NCBI GenBank assembly: GCA_029269845.2
Contig: CP149973.1
Location: 270,001-302,000, forward strand
Direction: 5' to 3'
Length of the DNA: 32,000 bases
Source of the DNA: Opitutia bacterium KCR 482
Lineage (GTDB): Bacteria; Verrucomicrobiota; Verrucomicrobiia; Opitutales; Intestinicryptomonadaceae
Below the pieces are notes generated by a model that made no database searches, was not told where the DNA came from, and was given only the letters and a program-made list of their open reading frames with translations. Positions 9,859 to 30,958 of the stretch are shown piece by piece. The position numbers and the translations under genes are program-made. Within the stretch, counting starts at the first letter, position 1; every line of letters starts with the position of its first letter.

Positions 9859-9859
9859 C

Positions 9860-11272
9860 ATGCCCGATTTATGCGAAATGCTCCGCAGACTCAAAGAATG
9901 CGGAATTGCTTGCGCGACGGACAAACACTCGCGCTTTGCGGCGTCGCTCGACCAAATGCGGTACAGCTTTTTGCCCGACGCCGTGGTCTACGCAAAGTCG
10001 GAGGCCGACGTTTCGGAAACGATGAAGGCGGCGTCGGACTGCGGCGTTCCGATTACCGTAAGAGGCTCGGGAACGGGCTGCGCGGGCGGCTGTGTGCCGA
10101 CATGCGGGGGCGTTGTGCTCGACATGTCGGGAATCGACTTCATCGAAATCGACGCGGTCTCGCGCATGGCGCACGTCGGCGCGGGCGCAATCACGGCAAA
10201 TGTGGACGAGGCGGCAAACAAATTCGGGCTGTTCTACGCGCCCGACCCGTCCTCGCACAAATTCTCGTCGATAGGCGGAAACATCGCGTGCAACGCGGGC
10301 GGACTGCGCGCGCTCAAATACGGCACGACGCGCGAAAACGTGCTCGCACTGAAAGCGGTGCTCGCCGACGGCCGCGCGGTATCGGGGGCATTGCCGCTGA
10401 AAAAATATTCTGTGGGAATCAACCTGCGCGACATTTTCATAGGCTCGGAGGGCACGCTCGGAATCGTAACGGAGGCGTGGCTGAAACTGCTTCCGCTCCC
10501 GAAGTCGCGCACGGCGGCGCTTGCGTTTTTCAAAAGCGATACAGAGGCGTTCAAGGGCGTCGGGAAAATCATGCGGGCAAACCTCTCGCCCTGCGTGCTC
10601 GAATTCATGGACGTCGAAACGGTCTCGTGCATTCGGGCAAGACACCCCGACTTCGGCGTGCCCGCAAACTCGGCGGCAATCCTCGCGGAATTCGACGACG
10701 ACGACAGCGCGGAACAGGCGCGGAAATTCGCGCAAACGCTCTCGCCCGAAGCCGACGCAAAATACGCCGCCGACAACGCCGAAACCGAAAGGCTTTGGGA
10801 AATCCGCCGCAAGGCGTCGCAATCTATGTTCGAGCTTGGCGACGGAAAAATAAATCAGGACATCGTTCTGCCCGCGGAATCGCTCGACGCGTACTTCGAA
10901 TATTTCAAAAATTTGGGCAGGGAATACAAGCTCGCAACACCCGTATTCGGACACGCGGGCGACGGCAACTACCATATCCACTTCATGTACAAATCGTCGG
11001 ATCCGACGGGACGCGCCCGCGCGCTCGCGGCGATGGACAAGGCTATTTCAAGGGCTGTGGAAGTGGGCGGCGCGGTGTCGGGCGAACACGGAATAGGCTT
11101 TTTGAAGTCGAAATACATGTCCAAACAGCACACGCCGACCGAGCTTGAACTGATGCGCTCAATAAAAAAAATCTTCGACCCTCGGGACATTCTGAACAGG
11201 GGGAAAATCCTTGTCCCTGTTGACACGTCGAATCTCCGCCCGCTAAGCGGCGTAAAACTTCCGTGGGACTAA
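9860..11272 (+). CDS. FAD-linked oxidase (GlcD / D-lactate dehydrogenase family)
   Basis: FAD_binding_4-type PITVRGSGTGCAGGCVP, and C-terminal GAVSGEHGIGFLKSKYM and IKKIFDPRDILNRGKI. The start is 1 nt after the ptsI stop. Confidence 0.8.
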   Translation: MPDLCEMLRRLKECGIACATDKHSRFAASLDQMRYSFLPDAVVYAKSEADVSETMKAASDCGVPITVRGSGTGCAGGCVPTCGGVVLDMSGIDFIEIDAVSRMAHVGAGAITANVDEAANKFGLFYAPDPSSHKFSSIGGNIACNAGGLRALKYGTTRENVLALKAVLADGRAVSGALPLKKYSVGINLRDIFIGSEGTLGIVTEAWLKLLPLPKSRTAALAFFKSDTEAFKGVGKIMRANLSPCVLEFMDVETVSCIRARHPDFGVPANSAAILAEFDDDDSAEQARKFAQTLSPEADAKYAADNAETERLWEIRRKASQSMFELGDGKINQDIVLPAESLDAYFEYFKNLGREYKLATPVFGHAGDGNYHIHFMYKSSDPTGRARALAAMDKAISRAVEVGGAVSGEHGIGFLKSKYMSKQHTPTELELMRSIKKIFDPRDILNRGKILVPVDTSNLRPLSGVKLPWD

Positions 11273-15967: not shown

Positions 15968-18454
15968 CTACGCCTTTTTACACGGTTTCTTTTTCTGCGA
16001 GAATGCGATATGTTTGCCGCCGTCGGCGAGCGTTGCGAAAATTTCGCCAGCGTCGGTGATTGTTCCGCGCAGGATTTCCTCGGCAAGGGCGTCTTCAAGC
16101 TCGCGTTCGATTGCGCGTTTGAGCGGCCGCGCTCCGTACTTTTCGTCCCACCCTTTCGATATGAGGAAGTCCGTCGCGGGCTTGTCGAGAACAAGCGACA
16201 TTCCCTTTTCGGCAAGTCTTGCGCGGAGTTTGTCAAGCTCAAGCCCGACGATTTTTTCCATGTCCGCCTTTGTGAGCATGCGGAAGAGGACGATGTCGTT
16301 TATGCGGTTGAGAAATTCGGGGCGGAACGATTTTTTCATTTCGTCCATGACTTTCTCTTTGAGCTTGTCGTAATCGTCGTCGAAGCCCGCCGCACCGAAG
16401 CCCATCGACGGGTTCTTTTGCAGAATGTTCGCACCGACGTTGCTTGTAAGAATTATAATCGTATTGCGGAAATCGACCGTTCTGCCGAGGCTGTCGGTGA
16501 GTCTGCCGTCCTCCAAGACTTGCAGGAGAATCTGCACGACGTCGGGGTGCGCCTTTTCGATTTCGTCGAAGAGTATTACGCTATACGGGCGTCTGCGAAC
16601 CTGCTCGGTGAGCTGTCCGCCGTCTTCGTGCCCGACGTATCCGGGGGGCGAGCCGATTAGCCGCGAGACCGAGTATTTTTCCATATACTCGGACATGTCG
16701 ATTTGAATGAGAGCCTCCTGCTTGCCGAACATCTGTTCGGCGAGCATCTTTGCCAAATACGTTTTCCCGACGCCCGTCGGACCCAAGAACAGAAACGAGC
16801 CTATCGGGCGTTTCGGATCTTTAAGCGCGGCGCGGGAGCGTCTGAGGGCGCGGGCGATAACCGACGTAGCCTCCTCCTGCCCCACGACGCGTGCGCGCAG
16901 GCGGTCTTCGAGTTCGAGCAGTTTTTTGCTCTCCTCTTTTTCCATGCGCGAAAGCGGAATGCCCGTCCACGTCGAAACCACCGCGTAGATGTCGTCCTCG
17001 CCGACTTCCACGCGCTTGTCTTCGAGCGACTTCTTCCAGTTTTTGACGATTTCGTCGCGCTCGCGCGAGAGCGATTTTTCGGCGTCTCGCAGTTTTGCGG
17101 CGTCCTCGTAGCGTTGGTCGCGGATTGCGTCCTCCTTCGCCTTTTCCGTATCGGCGATTTTCGCGTTGATGTCGAGCACCTCCTGCGGGCGTTCGAGCGT
17201 TTTGATTCTCGCGCGGGAGCCTGCCTCGTCGATTACGTCGATTGCCTTGTCGGGCAAAAACCTGCTTGTGATGTAGCGTTCGGAGAGTTTTACGGCGGCT
17301 TCGAGCGCGGCGTCGGAGTACACGCAGTGGTGGTGTTTTTCGTAGTTGCCGCGCAGGCCTTTGAGAATCAGAATGGCGTCGTCGCGCGACGGTTCTTCGA
17401 CTTTGACACTCTGGAAACGCCTGTCGAGCGCGCTGTCCTTTTCGATAAACTTGCGGTATTCTGCGATAGTCGTTGCGCCTATGCACTGCAACGACCCCCG
17501 CGAGAGCGCGGGCTTGAAGATGTTGGAGGCGTCCATTGCGCCCTCCGCCGCGCCCGCGCCGACTATCGTGTGGAGTTCGTCGATGAAAAGAATGACGTCG
17601 CCCGCCTTTTCGATTTCGTCCATGACCGCCTTGATTCGCTCTTCGAACTGTCCGCGGTATTTTGTTCCCGCGACCATCAGAGCCATGTCGAGCGTGATTA
17701 CGCGTTTTGAGGCAATCAGTTCGGGGACTTCGCCTTTTGCGATTTCCTGCGCCAAGCCCTCGACTATCGCGGTTTTGCCGACGCCCGCCTCTCCCACGAG
17801 AACCGGGTTGTTCTTTGTGCGGCGGCACAGAATTTGAATTACGCGCATGATTTCGTTTGCGCGTCCCACGACGGGGTCGAGCTTGCCGTTGCGGGCAAGT
17901 TCGGTGAGGTCGCGACCGAACGCTTTAAGCGCGCTCTGTTTGCCGTGTTCGGAGCGTTCGCCGCCCTCGGACTGGGGAATGTCGGAGTCGGGGTCGTCGG
18001 GAGTGTCGCCCACAAACTTTGGGTCTAGCTCGGCAAGAATCTGGTTGCGGCAGGCGTCGATATTCACGCCCAGCTTGCGCAGAACTTCCGCCGCGACTCC
18101 CTCGCCCTCGCGAAGAAGCCCAAGCAAAATGTGTTCCGTGCCTATATAGTTGTGGTTGAGTCTGCCCGCCTCGTTCGACGCCAGCGAGAGCACTTTCTGC
18201 ACTCTCTGTGTGTATTTGAGGTCGTTTGCCGCCTGCATCATGGCATCTCCCCCGCCGACTTGGCGCATGATTTCCGCGCTCACGTTTTCGAGGTTTATCC
18301 CCATTTTGCGCAGGACGTTCACGGCAACCCCCTGCCCCAAGCGGATTATGCCGAGCAAGATGTGTTCCGTGCCTATGTAGTTGTGCCCCAGACGCGCCGC
18401 TTCTTTGCGCGCCAGCGTTATTACCTGTTGGGCTCTCGGTGTAAAGTGCTGCAT
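15968..18454 (-). CDS. clpC: ATP-dependent Clp protease ATP-binding subunit ClpC
   Basis: Two Clp_N repeats ([12 protein letters not shown] twice), Walker [16 protein letters not shown] and [15 protein letters not shown], and a UVR-like linker [15 protein letters not shown] prefer ATG 18454 ([10 protein letters not shown]), which has GGAAGGA about 12 nt upstream; the track start at 18502 adds 16 aa. Confidence 0.9.
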
Positions 18455-18514
18455 TTTATGATAATTCCTTCCGTGTTGCGCGTTGTTTATCGGACGCAAC
18501 ATGCCGATATTAAC

Positions 18515-19561
18515 TTATTTTGCGGCGAATTCGGGAAGTCCCGCGGCGAACGTGTTAAGATACGCCGCCCTCACCGCGTCGCGCTCGGACGCCTCGGATT
18601 CCCTGATATTGAATTTGTCCTGCAAATGCGCGGGCTGAATGTCGAGAATTGCGTTGTCGACATCTTCTATGACGTCTCCCGCCGACTTGCAGAAGCCCAT
18701 GTCCGCCGCCATGCGAATGTTCGAAAGCAGCGAGACCGCCTCGGCTGTGTCTATAAGTTTGCAGTTTTTCAATATCGCGACCGACCGCGCTATCTTATCG
18801 ACAATCACAACGGGCGTTTGTTGCATCGTTTTCAGCCGCGCGTTTGTTTCGAACTCGACGAGCTTGTCGGTAAATTTTGCGATTTTTGCTATGATTTCCT
18901 CTTCGGAAATTCCAAGCGTCTGCTGGTTCGACAGCTGGAAGAACGCCCCGTAAGAGTCGCTGCCTTCGCCGTTCGCGCCCCTGACTACCATTCCCAGCTG
19001 GTTAAGCCCGCGCACTATTTTCTCTATCTGGCCGCCGAGCGAAAGCGCGGGAAGGTGCAACATGACCGACGCCCGCATTCCCGTTCCGACGTTTGTCGGG
19101 CACGCCGTGAGGTAGCCGAAGTTGGGGCTGAACGCGTATTCGAGCCGCTCCTCGACGGCGTCGTCTATGGAATTTACCGTGCGCCACAGCGCGTTGAGCC
19201 GCTGCCCCTTTGCGACAGCCTGAATGCGGAGGTGGTCTTCCTCGTTAATCATTGCGCTTGCCGCGCCGTCTTTTGAAATGTACACGCCCGCGTTTTCGGT
19301 TGCGCCCGCGAGTTCGCGGGTTGCGTGGCGTTCCTCGACGAGCATGCTCTTTCCGAAGTCGGAGATTTCGGACATCTTTACGAGCCTGCCGCCCTTGAAT
19401 TTCCCCGTCTTTGAGAGCGCGTCGGCGCATTTTTCGAACACCTCTGCAAGCTCCCCGCAAGACGCCGCGTTCGAGAAGCGCGTGTGCGCCAAGTTCCGCG
19501 CAAGCCTTATGCGCGAAGTCATCACGATTGCGGAGTTTTTTCTGTGGATTTTCAAGACCAT
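18515..19561 (-). CDS. mcsB: Protein arginine kinase McsB
   Basis: ATP:guanido phosphotransferase motifs EEDHLRIQ and CPTNVGTGMRASVMLHLPAL. The real start is ATG at 19561 (MVLKIHRKNS), sharing one base with the mcsA TAA stop (TAATG). The Arg-rich 151-aa extension in the track ORF runs out of frame across mcsA. Confidence 0.9.
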   Translation of the reverse strand: MVLKIHRKNSAIVMTSRIRLARNLAHTRFSNAASCGELAEVFEKCADALSKTGKFKGGRLVKMSEISDFGKSMLVEERHATRELAGATENAGVYISKDGAASAMINEEDHLRIQAVAKGQRLNALWRTVNSIDDAVEERLEYAFSPNFGYLTACPTNVGTGMRASVMLHLPALSLGGQIEKIVRGLNQLGMVVRGANGEGSDSYGAFFQLSNQQTLGISEEEIIAKIAKFTDKLVEFETNARLKTMQQTPVVIVDKIARSVAILKNCKLIDTAEAVSLLSNIRMAADMGFCKSAGDVIEDVDNAILDIQPAHLQDKFNIRESEASERDAVRAAYLNTFAAGLPEFAAK

Positions 19562-20226
19562 TATTTGTTCTTTTCGGACAGTTTTTTGAGCTTGTCGCGC
19601 AGGTCGGCGGCGTCTTCGTACCGCTCCTCGGCGACGGCTTCGTCGAGCATTTTCTGCAAGAGTCCGGGAGTCTCCTCCGCGGGTTGGGCGTCGGGCTGCG
19701 AATCCTCCACAACCTCGGCGTTGAGCTTTACGGGCTGCGTTTCCGACAGGAACGCGTCGAGCGTGTTTTCGAGCGTTTCGTCGAACAGCTCGCCGCCCGC
19801 GATTTCCTCGAAATCGCGCAGTTTTTTGGAGTTGTCTATCGACGCAAAGCAGTTTGCGCCGTGCGTTTTCGGCGTCTTGCCCTTGTGCTCCGTCGCTGCG
19901 TGCATTTGGGCGAAAAGCTCGAAGAGCCTGTTGCCCAGCGCGACGTAGCAGTCGGGACACGAGAACCTCGCGCCCTTTTCGATTTCCGAAAGCGACGCCC
20001 CGCAAGTCGGGCACGAATCCGGGTTTGCCGCCTTTGCCGACACTATTTTCTCTTCCAGTTCCTTCAATTTCGGAAAAAGGTCGAGCGGCAGATTTGCGGC
20101 GTCGAGCGACGCCTTTTCAGCGCACTCGGAGCACAAATGCACCTTCACCTTTTTACCGTTTACGATTTTGGTGATGTGGAATGTTGCGGGCTTGCCGCAT
20201 ATGTCGCATTTATATTCCGTAGCCAT
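19561..20226 (-). CDS. mcsA: McsA-like zinc-finger / UVR-motif activator of McsB
   Basis: CxxC pairs (CDICGK...CSECA and CPTCGA...CPDCY), a C-terminal UVR motif EERYEDAADLRDKLKKL, and its position directly upstream of mcsB-clpC. Confidence 0.8.
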   Translation of the reverse strand: MATEYKCDICGKPATFHITKIVNGKKVKVHLCSECAEKASLDAANLPLDLFPKLKELEEKIVSAKAANPDSCPTCGASLSEIEKGARFSCPDCYVALGNRLFELFAQMHAATEHKGKTPKTHGANCFASIDNSKKLRDFEEIAGGELFDETLENTLDAFLSETQPVKLNAEVVEDSQPDAQPAEETPGLLQKMLDEAVAEERYEDAADLRDKLKKLSEKNK

Positions 20227-20283
20227 TTTACGATTCCGCGCGCGCCGCGCGTTTTGCGGAGCGGCGGCGCAAGTGTGTGCGTG

Positions 20284-21825
20284 TTATACGAGTTTTAGAA
20301 GTTCGTCGGTCGAAGGTATGTCTCTTATGATTTGGGACTGCATCGGCCCGACACCGATATATCGCAAATTCGGCTTGTTGTTTAAGCCCGACTTCGACGC
20401 GACTTCCACGACGCTTTTCAGGCAGAACGCGACGTATTTTTTCGCGTTTTCGGGGAGGTCGGCAAACGAGCGGACTTTCGAAATGTCTTCGCTCCAGCCC
20501 GCAAGTTTTGCGTACACGGGGCGCAGTTTTTTGCGGAGCGCGTCGCAGCGCGGAACGCCGTGGTATACTTCGCCCGTGGAGTCGTCCACATACGAAGTGC
20601 ACACAAGCAGGTCGCCGTTCCAATCGCCGGAGTACGACAGCGCGTCGAGCTTGTTTATTACGATGTCTTCGTAGCCGCCGTAGCGGAGCGCGTCGCCCTT
20701 TTCGACGGCGTCGAACCAGCCGACCATGCGCTGGCGGCCGGTGCTTGTGCCGTATTCGAGCTTTTTGAGCTTCTGGGCGAGCGGGTGGGCGTCGTCCATT
20801 TGCGTGAGGAAGACGTGCGTGCCTACTTTCGTGTCGTAAGCCTTGCAGCAGCCGAGCGTGTGGACCGCGCGGAGCGGAATGCACGCGCTTTCGAAAAATT
20901 CGGGAACGCCCGTGTGCGACGCCGTTACATTGGGCGCAAAGCCGTGGCGTTTGTCGAGCCAGTACGACTGCCCGTATTCGCCGACGATATACCTGCCCTC
21001 CGACAGCGCTTTCAGGCAGATTTCGCGCACGTCGCCGATGTTCTTTGCAAGTTTCCGTCCAGCCGACCAATATTCTTCCACAACCGCGTCGATATTGATT
21101 TCGAAGGGATTTGCGCCCATGAATTTTTTGAAGTCGAAGTCCGACTCCGCAAACACGCCGTCTTTGATTGCGTCGGCGTTTGCCCTAAGTTCCGCGTTTG
21201 TGAGCTTTTCGAAAAACTGCGCCCACTTTTCGGGCGACACTTTGCAGACGTATTTTATTGTGTCGCAGGCGCGGGTGAGTTTTGCGGAAAGTTTGCGGGC
21301 AAAGTCTTCTTTGTGTCCGAGAAATTCGGCGTAGCAAATTTGGAACTGGCTGACTTCGTCGGCGTAGGACGGCGTGATGCCCCTGCCCGTCGAGCCGCGC
21401 GGCTCGTCTTTGAGGACGTTTACGCGGTAGTCTTCCCACGCGAGGTCGAGAAGTCTGTGTCCGAGGTCGGACATCATTGTGCGTTCGTCGATTACGAGTC
21501 TGTCGAAAATTTTGTATCCGCGTTTTTCGAGCGGCGCGCCCTCCCAGATGAATTTGCGGGGGTCGGCAACAACGCCCGCGCCGATTGCCAGCGTTTCGAC
21601 GTCGTTTTCTATCACGCCTGCGGGGAGGAGGTTGAGTTTGACGCCGCCGGCGGTGTGTCCCGAATTTGCGCCGCCGTTTACTTTGATTACGATGGCGGCG
21701 ATATTTTTCCGTCCCGTTTTCGATTTGAGTTCGTCTATGACTTCGTAGACGAGGCGTCCCTTACCTTCGTCGCCCATGCTGATTCCGACATCGGCGATAA
21801 TCTGACTTTTAAATTCCGTAAGCAT
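20284..21825 (-). CDS. purA: Adenylosuccinate synthetase, long divergent form (513 aa)
   Basis: GDEGKGRLV (P-loop), [24 protein letters not shown] (for FEGAQG), [28 protein letters not shown]. The catalytic and aspartate-binding positions appear retained. The protein is clearly longer and more divergent than canonical PurA of about 430 aa. Confidence 0.8.
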
Positions 21826-22045
21826 TGCGTTTCCTGTTTAATAAATCAATCCGACAAGATTGAAGTTTTACGGGCATTTTACAACCCCATTTTTCAAAAA
21901 ATTTCCGCTTTTTGCGCGAAAAGTCGGAAAATCGGGCGGAGGGGGCGGGCTATCTTGACAAAAGCGGAGGGAGGGGACGGAGGAGGCTTTTTCGCACAAG
22001 GGGTGCGAGGGAGGGCAAAAAAGAGGAGGAAGGGAAATTTTCCAT

Positions 22046-22084
22046 TTGACAAATCATAATTCAAACTCAATATCACATTATAAT
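22046..22084 (+). promoter_or_regulatory. Candidate promoter elements for the cassette (uncertain pairing)
   Basis: TTGACA at 22046-22051 and a perfect TATAAT at 22079-22084 lie in an AT-rich patch 30 nt upstream of ATG 22114. Their spacing (27 nt) is too long for a single sigma70 promoter, so at most one of them is used with a weak partner. Confidence 0.25.
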
Positions 22085-22113
22085 TTCCATTCAACTTTTC
22101 CCGCGCCCTTCAA

Positions 22114-22374
22114 ATGAAAGTGAGAGTTTGGTACAGCCAAATCGAACGCTCGGACGAAAACTCCTCGGTGCTTCTCGTCGGCGGAAAGCGCGTCGAGCTT
22201 CCGAACGACGCCTTCAAGACGGGCGCGCGCAACTCGGTGATTCTCGAAAAGTCTATAGCCGAAAAGCACGGGCTCAGGTGGAAGCTGCTTTTCCACATTC
22301 CGCCGAAAATCGCTCCCGTCTACAACCAGATTTGCATAGATGAACTTAGAATCAAACCAACGGTCGGCTGTTGA
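22114..22374 (+). CDS. Small hypothetical protein (86 aa), first ORF of the cassette
   Basis: GC3-rich codon usage matches that of real genes here. It overlaps the helicase start by 35 nt in a different frame. I recognise no motif and see no clear Shine-Dalgarno sequence. Confidence 0.45.
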   Translation: MKVRVWYSQIERSDENSSVLLVGGKRVELPNDAFKTGARNSVILEKSIAEKHGLRWKLLFHIPPKIAPVYNQICIDELRIKPTVGC

Positions 22375-23584
22375 AAAGCTGTCGAAGCTTCGCGCGGGCG
22401 CGTTGTTCATGAAGATGGGTTCGGGCAAAACAAAGGTTGCGTGCGACCTCGTAAGGCTCAGGCTCGGAAACATCGACGCCGTTATCTGGATTGCCCCCGC
22501 CTCGCTCTTGAAGTCGGCAAGGTATCTGTCGGAAATAGAAAAGTGGTCTGCGGGCTTTTTCGGACTGATTTTCTTCTTTTCCACGGAAAGCGTTTCGCAG
22601 AGCGACTCGAAATACCTCGAAATGCGCAAAATTGCGGAGTCGCGCCGCGTCTTCTGCATTGTGGACGAAAGCATTTTCATAAAAAATACAAAGGCCCTGC
22701 GCACGCGCCGCCTTTTGGGAGACTACCACCTTTTCGATTTCAGGATTATCCTAAACGGCACGCCAATCACGAAAAGCCTGCTCGACCTCTACGCGCAGAT
22801 TTCGTTCCTCTCGCCCAACATTCTCAAAATGACCGAGCGGCAGTTCGCCGACAATTTCCTCGTCTATTTCTTCGACGGAATCGACCCCTTCCCGTGGCGC
22901 AGGTGGTCGAAACCCGCGAATGTGGAGGCTCTCGCCGAAATCATCAAGCCCTACGTTTTCGACGCAGACTTCGACAACGAGTGCCGCATTAGAGTCTATA
23001 ACCGCGAGTTCGACCTCGATTCCGCCGAGCGCAGACGCTATTCCGACTTCAAGCGGAAATACCTCAACGGCAAATTCTACGTCTGCTTTTTTTCGGTCGC
23101 GCAGGCGTTCCAGCACGCGTACACGGTATCGTGCAAGGCTAAGTTTTGCGCGGCGATAGAAATCGTCAACAGGATACTCGACCGCGGCGAGAAAGTCGTG
23201 ATTTTCGCGAAGTTCGTGGCGGAGGCGCAAATGCTGAACAGGACATTCGGCGGGCTTGTCTACATGGGCGGCAGAAAGGACGACCTCTCGCTTTTCGAAA
23301 CAGAAGAAAGCGTGCTCGTCTGCACCTACGGAGTCGGAAGCATGGGACTGAACCTCCAATGCGCAAACAACGTCGTCTTCTATTCGCAGACTTTCGACTA
23401 CAAGGAAAAGGAACAGGCGACGCACAGAATTTTCAGGACGGGACAGACAAAAACCGTCAACGTCTACAACCTCTGGATTAACACGGGGCTTGAAGACATC
23501 ATAAAGTACAGTCTCGACAGAAAACGCGACCTGCTCGAAATGTTCGAGCGCGTAATCACCGCGCAGGAGGCGCAAAAACTTTGA
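22340..23584 (+). CDS. Compact SNF2-family helicase/translocase (414 aa)
   Basis: An ordered SNF2 motif set is present. Q-like LESNQRSAVEKL; I MGSGKT; Ia IWIAPASLL; II IVDESIFIKN; III LNGTPITKSLLDLY; IV KVVIFAKF; V GVGSMGLNLQCANNVVFY; VI QATHRIFRTGQTKTVNVYNL. Confidence 0.85.
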   Translation: MNLESNQRSAVEKLSKLRAGALFMKMGSGKTKVACDLVRLRLGNIDAVIWIAPASLLKSARYLSEIEKWSAGFFGLIFFFSTESVSQSDSKYLEMRKIAESRRVFCIVDESIFIKNTKALRTRRLLGDYHLFDFRIILNGTPITKSLLDLYAQISFLSPNILKMTERQFADNFLVYFFDGIDPFPWRRWSKPANVEALAEIIKPYVFDADFDNECRIRVYNREFDLDSAERRRYSDFKRKYLNGKFYVCFFSVAQAFQHAYTVSCKAKFCAAIEIVNRILDRGEKVVIFAKFVAEAQMLNRTFGGLVYMGGRKDDLSLFETEESVLVCTYGVGSMGLNLQCANNVVFYSQTFDYKEKEQATHRIFRTGQTKTVNVYNLWINTGLEDIIKYSLDRKRDLLEMFERVITAQEAQKL

Positions 23585-24867
23585 AGCAATATCTCGACAA
23601 AAACGTTTACGAAGCCGCAACGGAGCGCATGGAATTCATCTTCGACAATTTCGAGCGCGTCTACGTCTCGTTTTCGGGCGGAAAAGACAGCTCGGTTGTG
23701 CTCAACCTCGCGCTCGACTGCATGCGGCGGAAAAAAATCAAAAAAAAGCTCGGCGTGCTCTTCATAGACTTGGAGGGACAGTACCTTACAACGATAGACT
23801 ACATCAGGGAGACGCTTCTCGAAAACGCCGACATGCTCGACGTCTACTGGTGCTGCCTGCCGCTCACCCTCCGCAACGCCGTCAGCGTCTTTTCGCCGTT
23901 CTGGACTTGCTGGGACTTGGACGAGCGCGACAAGTGGATTCGCGAATACCCCGACTATCCCAATCTCGCCACAGAGCAAAACAATCCATTCCCGTTTTTC
24001 CAAAAGAAAATGGAGTTCGAAGAGTTCGTCCCCGCTTTCGGCAAATGGTACTCCAACGGGCAAAAGACCGCGTGCCTTGTCGGAATCCGCTCCGACGAGA
24101 GCCTAAACCGATACCGCACTATCCGCAACTATGTAAAGGAAACCCTCGACGGCAAAAACTGGACGACGAAAATTACCGACACCCTCTACAACGCCTACCC
24201 CATCTACGACTGGAACGTCCGCGACGTGTGGGTCGCCAACGGCAGGCTCGGCTGGAAGTACAACAGGCTCTACGACCTCTTCTACAAGGCGGGCGTGCCG
24301 CTCGCCTCCCAGCGCATTTGCCAGCCCTACGGCGACGACCAGCGCAAGGGGCTTAACCTCTACCGCGTCATAGAGCCTGACACTTGGGCGAAAGTCGTCA
24401 ACCGCGTAAGCGGCGCGAATTTCGGCAACATCTACTGCGGAAACCGAATCATGGGCTATCGCAATGTCAAACTGCCGCAGGGGCACACTTGGAAAAGCTA
24501 CTGCAAGCTGCTTCTTGCAACCCTCCCGCCCGAACTTGCCGCCCACTACAAGGCGAAGTTCAAACGCTTCATCTGGTGGTGGCACAAAAAAGGCTCGCCC
24601 GTCGGCGGCGAATTTATCGGCGACCTCCCGCCCGAAGCGAAAATTACCGACAGAAAATCGCCCTCGAACGAGCCTATCGTGCGCTACTCCAAAATTCCCG
24701 ACCACATCGACAACGGCTTCGAGCAGAAAAAGCTCGCCCCGTCTTGGCGGCGCATGTGCATTTGCATTCTCAAAAACGACCACCTCTGTTCGGGGCTGAG
24801 TTTCTCGCAGACAAAGCACCAACAGGAAAAAATGAGAAACCTTCTGGAAAAATATAAAAATTTATGA
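23581..24867 (+). CDS. PP-loop ATP pyrophosphatase of the PAPS-reductase family with an extended C-terminal domain (IbrA-like)
   Basis: PP-loop VYVSFSGGKDSSVVLNL near the N-terminus, followed by a C-terminal extension of roughly 200 aa. The CysH-type C-terminal ECGLH motif is not seen. The TTG start overlaps the helicase TGA (TTGA at 23581-23584); an internal ATG at 23629 is an alternative start. Confidence 0.85.
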   Translation: MKQYLDKNVYEAATERMEFIFDNFERVYVSFSGGKDSSVVLNLALDCMRRKKIKKKLGVLFIDLEGQYLTTIDYIRETLLENADMLDVYWCCLPLTLRNAVSVFSPFWTCWDLDERDKWIREYPDYPNLATEQNNPFPFFQKKMEFEEFVPAFGKWYSNGQKTACLVGIRSDESLNRYRTIRNYVKETLDGKNWTTKITDTLYNAYPIYDWNVRDVWVANGRLGWKYNRLYDLFYKAGVPLASQRICQPYGDDQRKGLNLYRVIEPDTWAKVVNRVSGANFGNIYCGNRIMGYRNVKLPQGHTWKSYCKLLLATLPPELAAHYKAKFKRFIWWWHKKGSPVGGEFIGDLPPEAKITDRKSPSNEPIVRYSKIPDHIDNGFEQKKLAPSWRRMCICILKNDHLCSGLSFSQTKHQQEKMRNLLEKYKNL

Positions 24868-25376
24868 CAGACAAACCGAAAAGTCCCGTGTACGGCGTCC
24901 GCGCCGTGCCGGTAGAGAAAATCAGGGCGAACTGCTACAACCCCAACAAGGTAGCCCCGCCCGAAATGAAGCTCCTTTACGACTCAATCAAAGAGGACGG
25001 CTACACCCAGCCCATCGTCTGCTACTACCTGAAAGACGAGGACGTTTACGAAGTCGTGGACGGTTTCCACCGCTTCCGAATCATACAAATCCACCCCGAC
25101 ATCTACGAGCGCGAAAACGGCATGCTACCCGTGGTAGTCATCGACCGCCCAATCGACGACCGCATGGCGTCAACTATCCGCCACAACCGCGCCCGAGGCT
25201 CGCACGACGTTGACCTTATGAGCAACATCGTAGCCGAACTCACCGAAATGGGTAAGTCGAACGCGTGGATTTCAAAACACCTCGGCATGAGCGCAGACGA
25301 AATCCTCCGCCTTAAACAAATTACTGGCATCGCCGCCCTCTTCAAAGATACCCCCTTCTCCAAATCTTGGCTCTAG
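24864..25376 (+). CDS. ParB/sulfiredoxin-fold N-terminal domain protein with C-terminal HTH (IbrB-like)
   Basis: VPVEKIRANCYNPNKVAPPEMKLLYDSIKEDGYTQPIVC...YEVVDGFHRFRI is a ParB N-domain with the DGxHR box, followed by IRHNRARG. The C-terminal GKSNAWISKHLGMSADEILRLKQ is HTH-like. The start overlaps the upstream stop (ATGA at 24864-24867). Confidence 0.85.
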   Translation: MTDKPKSPVYGVRAVPVEKIRANCYNPNKVAPPEMKLLYDSIKEDGYTQPIVCYYLKDEDVYEVVDGFHRFRIIQIHPDIYERENGMLPVVVIDRPIDDRMASTIRHNRARGSHDVDLMSNIVAELTEMGKSNAWISKHLGMSADEILRLKQITGIAALFKDTPFSKSWL

Positions 25377-25392
25377 GCAGGCTGCAGCCTGC
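25377..25392. repeat. Perfect 16-bp palindrome GCAGGCTGCAGCCTGC
   Basis: It begins 1 nt after the TAG stop of the ParB-like gene. A near copy lies at 25560-25576. Confidence 0.9.
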
Positions 25393-25401
25393 ACGGCGCA
25401 G

Positions 25402-25454
25402 ATGGGGGCTTGCCCCCATGAGGCGGATTTTGCTTTGCAAAATTCCTCCGCCTC
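25402..25454. other. Two adjacent GC-rich hairpins
   Basis: ATGGGGGC-TT-GCCCCCAT (25402-25419) is a perfect 8-bp inverted repeat. GAGGCGGA(25420-25427)...TCCGCCTC(25447-25454) encloses the inner TTTTGC-TTT-GCAAAA. No U-run follows on either strand. Confidence 0.8.
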
Positions 25455-25559
25455 CGCCCCCAATCGCGAGCCGCGCCACTCGTCGGAACTTCGGGTGCGG
25501 GTCGCACCTCCCTACAGAGCTTCGCTCCTTTCTGTGATTAAACGGCGCGGCTATAACCG

Positions 25560-25576
25560 ACAGGCTGGCAGCCTGT
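25560..25576. repeat. 17-bp palindrome ACAGGCTG-G-CAGCCTGT (near copy of 25377-25392)
   Basis: It shares the CAGGCTG/CAGCCTG arms with the first palindrome. It is flanked by one of two copies of ACGGCGCGGCTATAACCG (25542-25559 and 25611-25628). Confidence 0.85.
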
Positions 25577-25612
25577 ACGGCAACGGAACTTCGTTCCTTA
25601 TAGTTATAATAC

Positions 25613-25636
25613 GGCGCGGCTATAACCGCGCCTTTT
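25613..25636 (+). terminator. Candidate terminator of the cassette transcript
   Basis: ggcgcgg / ctataa / ccgcgcc gives a 7-bp GC stem, then TTTT. This is the first hairpin followed by a T-run downstream of the ParB-like gene. Confidence 0.5.
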
Positions 25637-25736
25637 CTATATCAGTCCGTATTGGCTTCGCCAATTACTACGCTTGGGATATACTTAATATTTTAAAGAA
25701 ACAGAGATAAAACAGATGCGCTTTGCGCGGAGAAAT

Positions 25737-29134: not shown

Positions 29135-29641
29135 ATGCAAAACATGAACGGATTAAAAAAACTTGTCTACCTGTTTTTCGCGTGCGCGTCGCTTGCGGCG
29201 TGCAACACCCAGCCTCCCGCGCAGAAAAGCCCCGAATGCACGGCGATTGAAACGGTCTATGCAATCGACAAACAAATAGTCTCGACGTCGAACACGGTTT
29301 CGGAAGTCGCGGCAAAGTCGCAGTCGGTGGCGCTGACTGGCTGCCCTCCCGAATTTATCGACGCGTATAGGGCGAACGTCAAGGCGTGGCAGAAACTCGC
29401 CGACATCGAAAAAAAGATGTACACGGTCAACATGACGAAGGCGCAAACCGACATCGCGAACTTCCTCTCCGAATACCAGTCGAACCCGTCGAAAGCTGCG
29501 GTGGAACTGAAACGCCGCTGGCCGTCGCAGGCAAAAGCAATCGACGAATGCACCGCGCAAATCGCATCGACCCGCGCCGACTACATCGCAATAGGCGTGA
29601 AGTACGACGCCGTCTACAACCAAAATTCGGGGCTGTTCTAA
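29135..29641 (+). CDS. Hypothetical lipoprotein
   Basis: Signal peptide with lipobox (LFFACASLAACNTQ) and consistent codon usage. I recognise no motif. Confidence 0.6.
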   Translation: MQNMNGLKKLVYLFFACASLAACNTQPPAQKSPECTAIETVYAIDKQIVSTSNTVSEVAAKSQSVALTGCPPEFIDAYRANVKAWQKLADIEKKMYTVNMTKAQTDIANFLSEYQSNPSKAAVELKRRWPSQAKAIDECTAQIASTRADYIAIGVKYDAVYNQNSGLF

Positions 29642-29704
29642 GCTCCGCAACGCAAAAATTCGGACATTTCGGCGGATTTTCGGAACAAGCCGCCCTATTC
29701 GCAA

Positions 29705-29733
29705 CGCGCGCCCGTTTTCGGCGCGCGCTTTTT
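29705..29733 (+). terminator. Rho-independent terminator
   Basis: cgcgcgcc / cgttttc / ggcgcgcg gives an 8-bp GC stem, then c and T5. Confidence 0.7.
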
Positions 29734-29831
29734 GCGCATTCGATTGATTTTGTATTTCGCTTGACTTTGCAAACGCCCGCGGTAGGGTAAAAAAAAATCG
29801 AATTGGGCGCAACCGCCCGAATTTTTGACGT

Positions 29832-30785
29832 ATGAAAATCGACAACCTGAAAATCTTCACCGGCAGAACGCACCCCGCTCTCGCCGAAGCAATCTGCAAA
29901 CAGCTGTCGCTGCCCCTTGGAAACGCATTGGTCGAATCCTTCCCCGACAGCGAAACTTTTGTCAAGATTATCGACCATATCCGCGGCGACGACGTTTTTA
30001 TTATCCAGCCCACGAGCCGTCCCACAAACGACAGCTTCATGGAATTGCTCATCATGATTGACGCCGCCCGCAGGGCTTCGGCAAAGCGCATCACGGCGGT
30101 TCTGCCCTTCTTCGGCTACGCCCGTCAGGACAGAAAAGACCAGCCGCGCGTTCCGATTACCGCAAAGCTTGTCGCAAACCTCCTGGTCGCAGCGGGCGCA
30201 AACCGCGTGCTTACGCTCGACCTCCACGCCAACCAGATTCAGGGCTTCTTCGATATTCCCTGCGACCACCTCTACGCGTCGCCGGTCATCTACGAATATC
30301 TGAAAAACCAGCCCGCAGACAACCTCACGATTTTCGCGCCCGACGTCGGCGGACTGAAACGCGCGCAGGCATACGCAACGCTTTTCAACTGCCAGCTCGG
30401 ATTCATCGCAAAGCGCAGAATCAGCGCGGAAGTTGTCGAGGCGACAAGCCTTGTCGGCGAAGTCGAAGGCCGCGACATTCTGATTGTTGACGACATGACG
30501 GAAACCGCGGGCACGCTTACCGCCGCCGCGAAAATCCTCAAAGACAAGGGCGCAAAAACAGTCAGAGCAGCAGTCACACACGCAGTGCTTACCGACAGCG
30601 CGTACGACAGACTTTCGGAAAAGTGGCTCGACGAACTCATTATTACAGACTCCACCCCGCCAGACCCGCGCTATGCCGACTACCCCATCACGGTACTCAG
30701 CGTCGCGAACCTGCTCACGGAGGCGATTCTGCGAATCCACAACAATATGTCGGTCACATCGCTCTTCAAAGTCAAGGGCTTCTAA
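29832..30785 (+). CDS. prs: Ribose-phosphate pyrophosphokinase (PRPP synthetase)
   Basis: FPDSETFVKI, FGYARQDRK, DLHANQIQGFFDIP, and the PRPP-binding loop ILIVDDMTETAGTL. Confidence 0.9.
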   Translation: MKIDNLKIFTGRTHPALAEAICKQLSLPLGNALVESFPDSETFVKIIDHIRGDDVFIIQPTSRPTNDSFMELLIMIDAARRASAKRITAVLPFFGYARQDRKDQPRVPITAKLVANLLVAAGANRVLTLDLHANQIQGFFDIPCDHLYASPVIYEYLKNQPADNLTIFAPDVGGLKRAQAYATLFNCQLGFIAKRRISAEVVEATSLVGEVEGRDILIVDDMTETAGTLTAAAKILKDKGAKTVRAAVTHAVLTDSAYDRLSEKWLDELIITDSTPPDPRYADYPITVLSVANLLTEAILRIHNNMSVTSLFKVKGF

Positions 30786-30810
30786 GCGGAAGACAGCTTG
30801 CAAAACAGAA

Positions 30811-30840
30811 AACGCCGTCGAATTTCGACGGCGTTTTTTT
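30811..30840 (+). terminator. Rho-independent terminator after prs (possibly bidirectional)
   Basis: cgccgtcga / att / tcgacggcg gives a 9-bp stem, then T7. An A-rich stretch on the left could also serve the convergent minus-strand gene. Confidence 0.8.
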
Positions 30841-30958
30841 GCCGGAGGAGACAATTACGGCGGAGAAAAATCGCCCTCCTATGCGCGAAGTTTTCAGTGA
30901 AAAAATAGACAAAAAAGCGGGCGCCTGTGGCGTCCGTTTCGAGGCGGGGTTGTTGCAG

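Follow-up and report, generated by a model that had tools for sequence, protein, structure and literature searches.

The closest described relatives of the locus analysed here are the IbrA/IbrB pairs of E. coli, encoded by the ibrAB island of ECOR-9 and, in K-12, by the paralogues YbdN/YbdM. In these a PAPS_reduct+DUF3440 protein stands, as at our locus, beside a ParB_N+HTH protein of about 170 aa. E. coli ibrAB reportedly activates prophage eib genes (Sandt et al. 2002), and no other genetic phenotype is known to us. In Listeria monocytogenes, lmo1309 (IbrB), lmo1310 (IbrA), lmo1311 (SNF2) and a small ORF upstream form a four-gene cassette, which sits between housekeeping genes. One publication on ybdN/ybdM mentions no SNF2 gene. 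The original prediction had supposed that ibrAB was without established biochemistry, and indeed none was found for the IbrA/IbrB family in the literature searched, where it is stated that 'YbdM is completely uncharacterized'. As none of these E. coli and Listeria loci has known biochemistry, a function shared with them can be claimed as homology only.

In the window, by which is meant the whole 32,000-nucleotide stretch of DNA that was analysed, positions 22114-25376 hold four overlapping ORFs on the + strand, and the predicted coordinates and all three overlaps were reproduced. They encode an adaptor-like protein, ORF1 (22114..22374, 86 aa), a compact SNF2-family ATPase (22340..23584, 414 aa), an IbrA-type PP-loop enzyme (23581..24867, 428 aa) and an IbrB-type ParB/Srx-fold protein with a C-terminal HTH (24864..25376, 170 aa). 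ORF1 and the SNF2 gene share 35 nt (22340-22374), the SNF2 and IbrA genes meet in TTGA (23581-23584), with AGGAGG about 10 nt upstream of the IbrA TTG start, and IbrA and IbrB meet in ATGA (24864-24867). Relatives with 74-76% identity in IbrA keep both the TTG start and the 4-nt overlaps, which are therefore not due to chance. The four ORFs are a real, tightly coupled unit of small adaptor, SNF2 motor, IbrA and IbrB. The Listeria cassette shares this order and these sizes and overlaps; the two IbrA proteins are 43% identical, and the host phylum differs, that of the window probably being Verrucomicrobiota (Opitutales). The cassette falls within the IbrA/IbrB family, which already has a name, is very large and occurs widely in bacteria, Listeria and E. 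coli among them, as well as in phages and plasmids. The suggestion that it might be a minimal, distinct new system must be given up, as the same four-gene unit is already present in the L. monocytogenes core genome and in many phages.

Alignment with two related cassettes (L006 and L009) showed that similarity starts some 80-90 nt ahead of the ATG of ORF1 and that the DNA farther upstream is unrelated. The stretch 22035..22113 (+), whose boundary is approximate, was thus assigned as an upstream leader or putative promoter region; no convincing match to a sigma-70 promoter was seen upstream of the cassette. On the other side, 25377..25700 (+) is a structured 3' region (RNA fold z = -5.4) with a 46-nt direct repeat (D2) and a terminator-like hairpin at 25613-25632 followed by a T-run. 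It has no homology in the cassette's relatives and is probably the end of the transcription unit, lying outside the conserved cassette. Both of the expected housekeeping flanks were found: an adenylosuccinate-synthase-like gene, which scores under the cut-off of the purA equivalog model, and rho (PRK09376, 441 bits; cut-off 315). The GC3 of the cassette equals that of the host, a point counted against a defence role. As an IbrAB-type module of four genes the locus is complete and probably active.

IbrA scored above the Pfam gathering cut-offs for both DUF3440 (182.8 against 25, E = 7e-54, full length) and PAPS_reduct (51.4 against 22.5), and matched phrog_2302 (E = 6.6e-101). It is a PAPS-reductase-like ATP-pyrophosphatase domain, with the motifs SGGKDS, GIRxDES and YPIYDW, fused to DUF3440, in agreement with the predicted PP-loop protein with a C-terminal extension. 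The family search gave at least 8000 homologues; SGGKDS is invariant in the family, conservation is at least 95% in the PP-loop and in the GIRxDES...R loop, and no Cys reaches that level among 294 sequences. An AF2 model (pLDDT 78) was compared with known structures using Foldseek. The top matches were the FAD synthase PAPS domain, FMN adenylyltransferase (FMNAT), CysD and CysH, followed by TilS, LarE and TtuA; the DUF3440 domain gave no recognised fold match. Assignment of IbrA as assimilatory CysH was rejected, as had been predicted, since it scored 18 bits with TIGR00434 against a cut-off of 165 and has neither the catalytic Cys nor the ECGLH tail, nor any conserved Cys.

Database names for such proteins include 'phosphoadenosine phosphosulfate reductase' and 'moron, auxiliary metabolic gene', and the reading of IbrA as a sulfur-metabolism auxiliary gene is common in virome annotation. 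The CysH results argue against it, as does the obligate pairing of IbrA with a ParB-like DNA-binding protein. TASmania has lmo1309/1310 as a putative toxin-antitoxin pair through guilt-by-association, but highly conserved enzymes of 428 and 170 aa do not match toxin-antitoxin architecture, and published overexpression of E. coli YbdM lowers the growth rate by only about 10%. An explanation of either kind is extremely improbable.

The third predicted protein, with the DGxHR box of a ParB N-domain and a C-terminal HTH, was also borne out. IbrB scored 32 with ParB_N (gathering cut-off 26.3), residues 121-150 match the canonical HTH repeat, and phrog_2159 was matched with E = 2.9e-77. Its motifs NxYNPNxVA, DGFHR, T..HNRARGxH and GM..E..RLKQ..G are 90-100% conserved across the family, DGFHR being invariant. 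Conservation of IbrB is very strong, with a median identity of 65%; its best 120 database matches, among them named proteins of Opitutales and Lachnospiraceae (Muricomes), have 75-88% identity or more. The Pfam, PHROG and NCBIfam results uphold the IbrA-like and IbrB-like identities. IbrB was linked to IbrA in 167 of 170 loci selected by IbrA; the two are an almost obligate pair, which moves between phages, plasmids and chromosomes. Some subfamilies carry extra enzymes, namely an EctC-type cupin between IbrA and IbrB (10 loci) and a SAM methyltransferase downstream of the cassette in Listeria, suggesting a multi-step modification.

The SNF2 protein has motifs I, II, III and VI intact (GSGKT, DESI, LNGTP and HRIFRTGQ), scores above the gathering cut-offs for SNF2-rel_dom (36.4 against 24.9) and Helicase_C (33 against 23.5), matches phrog_62 (E = 8.5e-63) and has no accessory domains in its 414 aa; it is the compact helicase with ordered SNF2 motifs that was predicted. 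IbrA lies within 2.5 kb downstream in 147 of 148 viral loci selected by SNF2 (immediately in 113, within 2.3 kb in 34 more), and the gene order is SAB in 138 of 157. Thus the predicted synteny with other loci was found, but SNF2 is present in only about 20% of IbrAB loci, and the proposal of three genes as one unit has to be replaced by a core pair with a dedicated add-on, optional to IbrA and IbrB, made up of this SNF2 clade together with the small adaptor. The SNF2 ATPase motifs have been lost in nine chromosomal loci, which implies that motor activity is not always needed.

The small ORF is no mere curiosity but a genuine fourth component, a conserved adaptor family across phyla. Residues 1-58 of ORF1 form a small N-terminal beta-barrel (AF2 model of the protein, pLDDT 90.4), and its C-terminal tail, FHIPPKIAPVYNQICIDELR, is conserved; the protein gave no Pfam match. 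Its length is the same in close relatives, and a scan of 1.84 billion proteins returned 16 cluster representatives of 74-131 aa, mostly 80-87 aa. The tail motif HxPxKxxPxxNxxI[DE]EL[KR] occurs in the gene just upstream of SNF2 in Bacteroidetes-type phages, in Listeria, and in Lactobacillus and Streptococcus phages.

The composition of the cassette bears on the possibility that IbrA acts like TilS, TtcA and TtuA, modifying or repairing a universally conserved RNA (e.g. tRNA or rRNA), with IbrB as an NTP-dependent kinase-like or targeting partner. A universal substrate would suit the very high conservation of both proteins. TilS, TtuA and LarE, together with NcsA, appear at the lower Foldseek ranks for IbrA, which has weak NCBIfam PP-loop matches to TtcA and TilS, and IbrB weakly matches SerK, a serine kinase of ParB/Srx fold. 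However, the dedicated partner is a SNF2 dsDNA translocase, IbrB has a classical HTH, a Pfam search of the cassette detected no RNA-binding domain (THUMP, PUA or S4), and IbrA is structurally closer to FMNAT, CysD and CysH than to the tRNA enzymes. Action on RNA is very unlikely.

The possibility that the cassette senses or modifies nucleic acid to restrict invading phages or plasmids, like Dnd, Dpd and DISARM, was also considered. The C-terminal half of the SNF2 protein resembles the helicases ZorD, DpdE and DrmD (73, 59 and 43 bits), IbrA weakly matches DndC and BrxP, Dnd and Dpd contain pairs of ParB-like and PP-loop proteins, and the untested candidate clusters of a 2026 preprint combine a PAPS reductase and a ParBc protein with a nucleoid protein. 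All matches to defence models are, however, partial and far under the family cut-offs, and neither the cassette nor its flanks contain a nuclease (its absence had been predicted) or other effector. The 145 genes flanking 37 chromosomal loci include just two type I methyltransferases and one AbiEi, the rest being mostly housekeeping or heterogeneous, which contradicts the supposed defence-island location. The IbrA/IbrB pair is not represented among the PADLOC models. The module also belongs to the conserved content of phage genomes, lytic as well as temperate, and the conservation of its components far exceeds that typical of arms-race proteins. The 'defence system' label, set against housekeeping flanks, phage carriage, high conservation and the missing effector, is not supported, and such a role is quite unlikely.

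A role in gene expression, in which IbrB loads on DNA like the CTP switches VirB and KorB and relieves silencing by nucleoid proteins, SNF2 remodels nucleoprotein or RNA polymerase complexes and IbrA gives an accessory nucleotide-dependent step, is unlikely. The annotation traces to the reported eib activation, the ParB_N plus HTH architecture of IbrB would fit, and its very high conservation would agree with a conserved cellular target. In Lactobacillus, Streptococcus and Clostridium phages the module directly follows the lysis genes, with same-strand early genes after it in the first two and an integrase nearby in the third, and chromosomal copies are solitary amid housekeeping genes. Against this, a catalytically intact PP-loop enzyme as obligate partner is left unexplained, neighbours vary by locus so that no conserved target genes adjoin the cassette, and lytic Flavobacterium columnare phages place the module within a block of core genes, between terminase and portal.

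We tentatively favour, at somewhat less than an even chance, an autonomous, mobile, ATP-dependent module that acts on DNA, probably by modifying it, and that has no restriction or effector arm, rather than abortive or restriction-type defence. IbrB, with its ParB/Srx fold, fully conserved nucleotide-pocket-like motif set and HTH, would bind DNA and probably NTP and position the complex. IbrA, as a cysteine-independent PP-loop ATP pyrophosphatase, would use ATP to adenylylate, and thereby activate, a nucleic-acid oxygen (backbone phosphate or base carbonyl), which would then be substituted or processed. The adaptor, through its conserved C-terminal tail, would couple the SNF2 motor, whose translocation along dsDNA may spread the complex or provide it with access. 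The DNA of the element itself or of its host would in this way receive a covalent mark or undergo a processing step.

In favour of DNA as the target are ParB_N with HTH, the SNF2 dsDNA translocase and the replication and recombination genes (DnaB, a YqaJ-domain protein) that the phage modules adjoin; by inspection, further phage neighbours belong to families resembling DEAD/ResIII-type helicase and primase-helicase. Several points count against modification. The literature searched contains no demonstration of it for any member of the family, RNA, protein or a small molecule could equally be the substrate, and DUF3440 matches no recognised fold. Conservation as high as that of IbrB is unusual for a specificity subunit of DNA modification, and no sequence-specificity domain is evident. 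The eib activation points to gene regulation instead, and the loss of SNF2 ATPase motifs in chromosomal loci also counts against.

The cassette fits none of Dnd, Ssp and Dpd, as had been predicted, since every system-specific model scored far under its cut-off and the partner genes are absent; membership of DISARM or Zorya was rejected on the same grounds. The pairing of IbrB with IbrA nevertheless parallels DndB-DndC and DpdB-DpdA, an analogy counted in favour of modification. In DNA phosphorothioation DndB-DndC likewise combine a ParB/Srx-superfamily DGxHR protein with a PAPS-reductase-like PP-loop ATP pyrophosphatase acting on DNA, and IbrA weakly matches DndC around the PP-loop and GxRxxES loop. 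IbrA was, however, rejected as DndC (TIGR03183, 23 bits against 290): DndA, DndD and DndE are missing, IbrA has no conserved Cys dyad or Fe-S ligands, and DUF3440 takes the place of the DndC C-terminus, making sulfur insertion unlikely. In the 7-deazaguanine system Dpd, the ParB-like NTPase DpdB aids the base-modifying transglycosylase (TGT) DpdA, with SNF2-type helicases including DpdE, a common theme. The cassette lacks the transglycosylase, QueC and DpdC, and although the C-terminal half of its helicase matches DpdE models, the NCBIfam score is 11 bits against 500 and the protein has 414 aa against about 1050 aa for the DpdE model.

The best PDB sequence matches of IbrB are Spo0J, Noc and ParB. 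As in the ParB-family CTP switches (ParB/Spo0J, Noc, KorB and VirB), an N-terminal ParB fold carrying box-like motifs precedes the HTH, but IbrB scores 24 bits with TIGR00180 (cut-off 58), has DGFHR and HNRARGxH in place of GERRxR and ENxQR, and lacks the C-terminal dimerisation domain and a ParA partner, its obligate partner being an enzyme. For the catalytic domain of IbrA, the best structural matches (Foldseek E = 2e-7 to 2e-6) are FMN adenylyltransferase/FAD synthase PAPS domain and the ATP sulfurylase CysD, which have an intact PP-loop, as in IbrA, and transfer adenylyl to a phosphate or sulfate oxygen. The nearest folds, CysH included, are those of enzymes acting at the alpha-phosphate of an adenine nucleotide. 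IbrA is just 15-18% identical to FMN adenylyltransferase and CysD and has about 190 extra C-terminal residues (DUF3440) and, in contrast to these enzymes, its genomic partners are a DNA-binding and a DNA-translocating protein.

The cassette consists of four forward-strand genes: ORF1, the adaptor (window 22114-22374, 86 aa), SNF2 (22340-23584, 414 aa), IbrA (23581-24867, 428 aa) and IbrB (24864-25376, 170 aa). All four open reading frames were found at exactly the coordinates of the original prediction, and the junctions it described were present too: a 35-nt overlap between ORF1 and SNF2, TTGA between SNF2 and IbrA, and ATGA between IbrA and IbrB, where the overlap is 4 nt. Some 10 nt ahead of the TTG with which IbrA starts there is an AGGAGG. 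The gene sizes, the TTG start and the 4-nt overlaps recur in relatives with 74-76% identity in IbrA, so the arrangement is conserved and not accidental. The predicted domains were borne out by profile searching, in which SNF2-rel_dom, Helicase_C, PAPS_reduct, DUF3440 and ParB_N all exceeded the Pfam curated cut-offs.

The location between a purA-like gene and rho also agreed with the prediction. One flank carries the adenylosuccinate-synthase-like gene, mcsA, mcsB and clpC, and the other rho, exbD, exbB and leuD-like genes. The third-position GC content of the cassette (GC3 0.73-0.76) is the same as that of its neighbours. No tRNA gene or Rfam element was found in the window, and no direct or inverted repeats bound the cassette as a mark of insertion. 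After the IbrB stop, the region 25377-25700 contains a GC-rich hairpin cluster (RNA fold z = -5.4 against shuffles) with a 46-nt direct repeat (25514-25559 and 25583-25628, 80% identical), the second copy of which terminates in a terminator-like hairpin. This region showed no conservation in relatives, no other copy in the window and no Rfam match.

Two neighbouring genes are unusual in themselves. The purA-like gene (20284-21825, reverse strand) is unusually long at 513 aa, a form shared by the relatives L005-L008 (515 aa). Two stretches of its product match adenylosuccinate synthase; the score is 233 against the NCBIfam purA cut-off of 402, and the N-terminus weakly matches PurZ (42 bits against 300). 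An ORF at 29427-30854 (reverse strand, 475 aa) has no Pfam or NCBIfam match and a GC3 of 0.54, compared with about 0.72 in the adjoining genes; it may be foreign or mis-called.

Close Verrucomicrobia relatives were obtained through exact-protein look-ups. DNA similarity to the related cassettes extends from about 80-90 nt 5' of ORF1 to the IbrB stop. In L005-L008 the cassette is placed after clpC. The purA-mcsA-mcsB-clpC block (window 15968-21825; 259-6161 in L005-L008) adjoins the cassette in both arrangements, but in L005-L008 it is inverted compared with the window, and one breakpoint of this inversion is the upstream edge of the cassette. The downstream neighbour is rho in the window but a secretin gene in L005-L008. 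In two further loci, L009 and L010, the cassette has a citrate transporter gene on one side and an oxidoreductase gene on the other, and an integrase gene lies about 2.6 kb 3' of it, past the oxidoreductase and AP-endonuclease-family genes. No terminal repeats were found.

IbrA has at least 8000 homologues, all at E ≤ 1e-10, with matches in 224 phage and 731 plasmid records. The PHROG families matched were phrog_2302 for IbrA (7e-101), phrog_2159 for IbrB (2.9e-77) and phrog_62 for SNF2 (9e-63). A set of 170 loci was selected by IbrA alone (4 phage records, 6 close relatives, 80 species-representative genomes and 80 viral contigs). IbrB was linked to IbrA in 167 of them, directly downstream in 121 and otherwise a few hundred bases downstream or directly upstream. 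SNF2 lay directly upstream of IbrA in 35 of the 156 loci with enough sequence, about one in five (by source, 12/73 genomes and 14/74 viral contigs). The reverse test used 159 viral loci chosen by two SNF2 subclade alignments, since the full SNF2 alignment was too divergent for a locus scan. Among the 148 with at least 1.3 kb downstream, IbrA followed SNF2 directly in 113 and an IbrA-family gene was present 0.5-2.3 kb downstream in 34 more, leaving one locus without; the order SNF2-IbrA-IbrB was seen in 138 of 157 loci. These two-way counts show that IbrA and IbrB form the core and that the SNF2 clade is a dedicated yet optional partner. The syntenic unit originally proposed therefore stands for the IbrA/IbrB pair, but not for SNF2 in most IbrA loci. 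No further general partner family of IbrAB emerged, the neighbours being heterogeneous: integrases, DnaB and YqaJ in phages, together with DEAD/ResIII-type and primase-helicase genes recognised by inspection, and transporters in bacteria.

The SNF2 protein scored 36.4 against 24.9 for PF00176 and 33 against 23.5 for PF00271, and motifs I, II, III and VI are intact in the window (GSGKT, DESI, LNGTP and RIFRTGQ). Nine chromosomal loci, mostly from uncultured Alphaproteobacteria (L015, L017, L019, L022-L026 and L055), have an SNF2 gene upstream of IbrA in which Walker A and motif VI are destroyed, with IbrA and IbrB still intact; there the SNF2 protein may serve only as a scaffold.

At most SNF2 loci the product of the gene just 5' of SNF2 has a C-terminal tail that is conserved. 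Two classes occur. The short one, of about 95-140 aa, has the tail H-x-P-E/x-K-x-x-P-x-x-x-N-x-I-x-E-L-K/R; the long one, of about 360-420 aa (phrog_16123), has KDGLKEILNSSxDILDDLKDD, along with an apparent zinc-ribbon (Cys-pair) N-terminus. The C-terminus of ORF1 in the window, FHIPPKIAPVYNQICIDELR, fits the short class, as do the adaptors of Listeria and the Flavobacterium columnare phage. An exhaustive scan of 1.84 billion proteins gave 16 cluster representatives of the ORF1 family, of 74-131 aa and mostly 80-87 aa. In an AlphaFold model built on this family (pLDDT 90.4), residues 1-58 form a small barrel of six strands, and the tail after it is extended. No significant PDB match to the fold was found (best E = 0.15, to SH3/Sm-like barrels), BFVD gave only marginal matches to small uncharacterised phage proteins (E = 5e-3), and no Pfam family matched the adaptor proteins. 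For the dN/dS of ORF1, dS was saturated; ORF1 is a genuine gene on the grounds of family conservation and the structure model. The tail is conjectured to dock on the SNF2 protein.

IbrB is the best conserved of the four proteins. Median identity to the window across 176 trios was 65% for IbrB, 42% for IbrA and 30% for SNF2, and in 288 of 300 loci IbrB exceeded IbrA in conservation, giving a gradient IbrB > IbrA > SNF2 > adaptor. Its best 120 database matches, with named proteins of Opitutales and Lachnospiraceae among them, had an identity of 75-88% or more. The N-terminal domain matches ParB (PF02195, 32 bits against 26.3) and residues 121-150 match a canonical helix-turn-helix (HTH) repeat. 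In 285 sequences 21 positions are 100% invariant, including N23, N26-P27-N28, D66-G67, H69-R70, T104, N108, G112 and H114, and in the HTH region G141, M142, E146, R149 and G155. The motifs match ParB boxes I-III in position but differ from them in sequence. DGFHR departs from the ParB boxes and recalls the signatures of Srx and DndB, which suggests, at the level of sequence, that the nucleotide pocket of IbrB may be of a distinct kind. IbrB is not a ParB of a ParABS system: it scored 24.4 against 58.45 for TIGR00180, only 20 residues follow the HTH and there is no adjacent ParA. VirB/KorB-like gene activation or anti-silencing would account for the label 'co-activator of prophage gene expression', which reportedly goes back to genetics from 2002. 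It leaves the obligate catalytic partner unexplained, and is considered unlikely.

That partner, IbrA, combines an N-terminal domain with an intact PP-loop, SGGKDS (PF01507, 51.4 bits against 22.5), and a C-terminal DUF3440 (PF11922, E = 6.8e-54, profile positions 1-181 of 182). Among 294 distinct sequences S32, G34, K35, D36 and S37 of the PP-loop are at least 95% conserved, as are D63, E65, Y68, G168, R170, E173, S174, R177, P207, D210 and W211. No cysteine reaches 95% in the same 294 sequences, the best being at 83%; this argues against PAPS reduction, a persulfide relay and Fe-S-dependent thiolation. As had been predicted, IbrA is not an assimilatory CysH: it scored 18.4 against 165.1 for TIGR00434 and 17.8 against 154 for PRK02090, the catalytic cysteine of ECGLH is missing and the C-terminus is DUF3440. 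IbrA also fell short of the curated models for CysD, TtcA, TilS and LarE. Readings of the cassette as a toxin-antitoxin pair or as a sulfur-metabolism auxiliary gene were both rejected and are very improbable. Viromics routinely miscounts IbrA as a sulfur-metabolism gene.

No relative of IbrA was found in the PDB by sequence. The closest structures to its AlphaFold model (pLDDT 78) were the human FAD-synthase PAPS domain, yeast FMN adenylyltransferase, CysD and CysH, followed by TilS, LarE and TtuA; the DUF3440 fold had no separate structural match. The FAD-synthase PAPS domain, FMN adenylyltransferase, CysD and CysH act at the α-phosphate of an adenine nucleotide. Since these are the nearest folds, the simplest inference from the model is that IbrA would catalyse adenylyl transfer to an oxygen nucleophile.

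Counterparts of the cassette occur in phages. Clostridium phage phiCs5676-1, Streptococcus equinus phage Pika and Lactobacillus phage CR28 have the order helicase-IbrA-IbrB with one or two small genes in front. In all three the module comes directly after the lysis genes; early genes on its own strand follow it in the Lactobacillus and Streptococcus phages, and the integrase is nearby in the Clostridium phage. All 90 of the 90 Flavobacterium phage records with an IbrA match also match SNF2. In the one phage of this group examined, the lytic F. columnare phage FCOV-F18 (L330, 3820-7004), the adaptor, SNF2, IbrB and IbrA lie in this order between the terminase and portal genes, with IbrB ahead of IbrA, whereas in the window IbrA comes first.

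The original prediction had also raised defence. As it had stated, the cassette does not fit Dnd, Ssp or Dpd, whose models were under cut-off and whose partner genes were not found. For Dnd, the DndC model TIGR03183 gave 22.9 against 290.4, IbrA has no conserved cysteine, and the flanks are purA-like, mcsAB, clpC, rho and exbBD in place of dndA/dndD/dndE. For Ssp, PADLOC SspD gave 13.4 bits (E = 0.012) with no stretch passing and no partner genes. For Dpd, there is no TGT among the four proteins or the flanking genes, and NF041062 (DpdE) gave 11.4 against 500. DISARM, Zorya and BREX do not fit either: DrmD and ZorD scored far under the NCBIfam cut-offs (43.6 against 950 and 42.5 against 1500), the PADLOC matches to the ZorD, DpdE and DrmD helicases being confined to the C-terminal lobe of SNF2. 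PADLOC gave only weak partial matches on IbrA (DndC, 33 bits; BREX BrxP, 24.8 bits across 23 residues, PP-loop only) and has no model recognising IbrB.

A census of 145 proteins, taken from the four large genes closest to each of 37 chromosomal IbrAB loci, was not defence-like. The commonest families were ABC transporters, chemoreceptors, aldo-keto reductases, LpxK, MutL and sigma factors. Known defence genes came to two type I methyltransferases and one AbiEi in 145, a raw count from a modest sample with no background rate, and by such counts defence genes were not enriched around the 37 loci. The remaining 'mad' matches, equal in number to the ABC_tran/SMC_N proteins that the Pfam census counted, probably reflect generic cross-matching of ABC ATPases. 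The housekeeping context, the lack of an effector and the occurrence of the module in lytic phages make a role in restriction or abortive infection less likely. A 2026 preprint describing candidate defence clusters with a nucleoid protein, a PAPS reductase and a ParBc protein offers a lead only. A defence system, as first proposed, is improbable.

Additional enzymes accompany the pair in some lineages. Ten IbrAB loci (L030, L109, L117, L121, L123, L124, L130, L137, L140 and L147; e.g. L121:2285-2665) have an unexpected insertion between IbrA and IbrB, a 127-aa cupin of the ectoine-synthase family (EctC-type; PF06339, E = 2e-44), which may hint at the chemistry. The Listeria monocytogenes chromosome has an identical four-gene unit, between pyrH/frr and tkt/lexA, followed on the same strand by genes for a class I SAM-dependent methyltransferase and a DUF2785 protein (L331, the Listeria locus, 8840-10432); these two genes are outside the unit in other lineages. 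The presence of such accessory enzymes, the EctC-type cupin and the Listeria SAM methyltransferase, in some subfamilies fits a multi-step modification pathway.

The reading tentatively preferred, at somewhat less than even confidence, is that the cassette is an autonomous ATP-dependent DNA-acting module, probably a DNA-modifying one. IbrB would bind DNA and nucleotide, IbrA would adenylylate a backbone phosphate or a base carbonyl oxygen, and SNF2 with the adaptor would provide translocation or access. Modification of RNA is, as a rival to action on DNA, rather improbable; it, defence and the sulfur or toxin-antitoxin readings are all weaker than gene activation. A more specific form of the DNA proposal is possible though doubtful: IbrA/IbrB would carry out an undescribed, cysteine-independent, ATP-dependent covalent modification in which a non-sulfur nucleophile displaces the adenylyl-activated phosphate or base carbonyl, with SNF2 and the adaptor as a processivity add-on, and would mark the own DNA of phages, plasmids and some bacteria. 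If so, thousands of 'phage PAPS reductase AMGs' in viromes would be mis-annotated DNA-modification enzymes, and the predicted DNA chemistry would be a new type of DNA modification.

The analysis defines an invariant IbrA+IbrB core with the SNF2 clade and the tailed adaptor as dedicated partners. It excludes membership of CysH, DndC and DpdE, and argues against Cys/Fe-S sulfur chemistry and classical defence. The dedication of the SNF2 clade, the tailed adaptor family, the lack of a conserved cysteine, the conservation gradient and the non-defence context may be new to the literature. The locus is not the distinct system first supposed, as it belongs to the known, uncharacterised IbrA/IbrB family, which is among the most widespread mobile-element enzyme pairs without known function. 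E. coli K-12 carries the pair, and so does the core genome of L. monocytogenes. The K-12 paralogues are ybdN/ybdM, and YbdM was called 'completely uncharacterized' in a 2022 paper. According to a published comparison, lmo1309 (IbrB), lmo1310 (IbrA) and lmo1311 (SNF2) are found specifically in Listeria sensu stricto. Genetically tractable models are available in Listeria lmo1309-1312, E. coli ybdNM and the Flavobacterium columnare phages.
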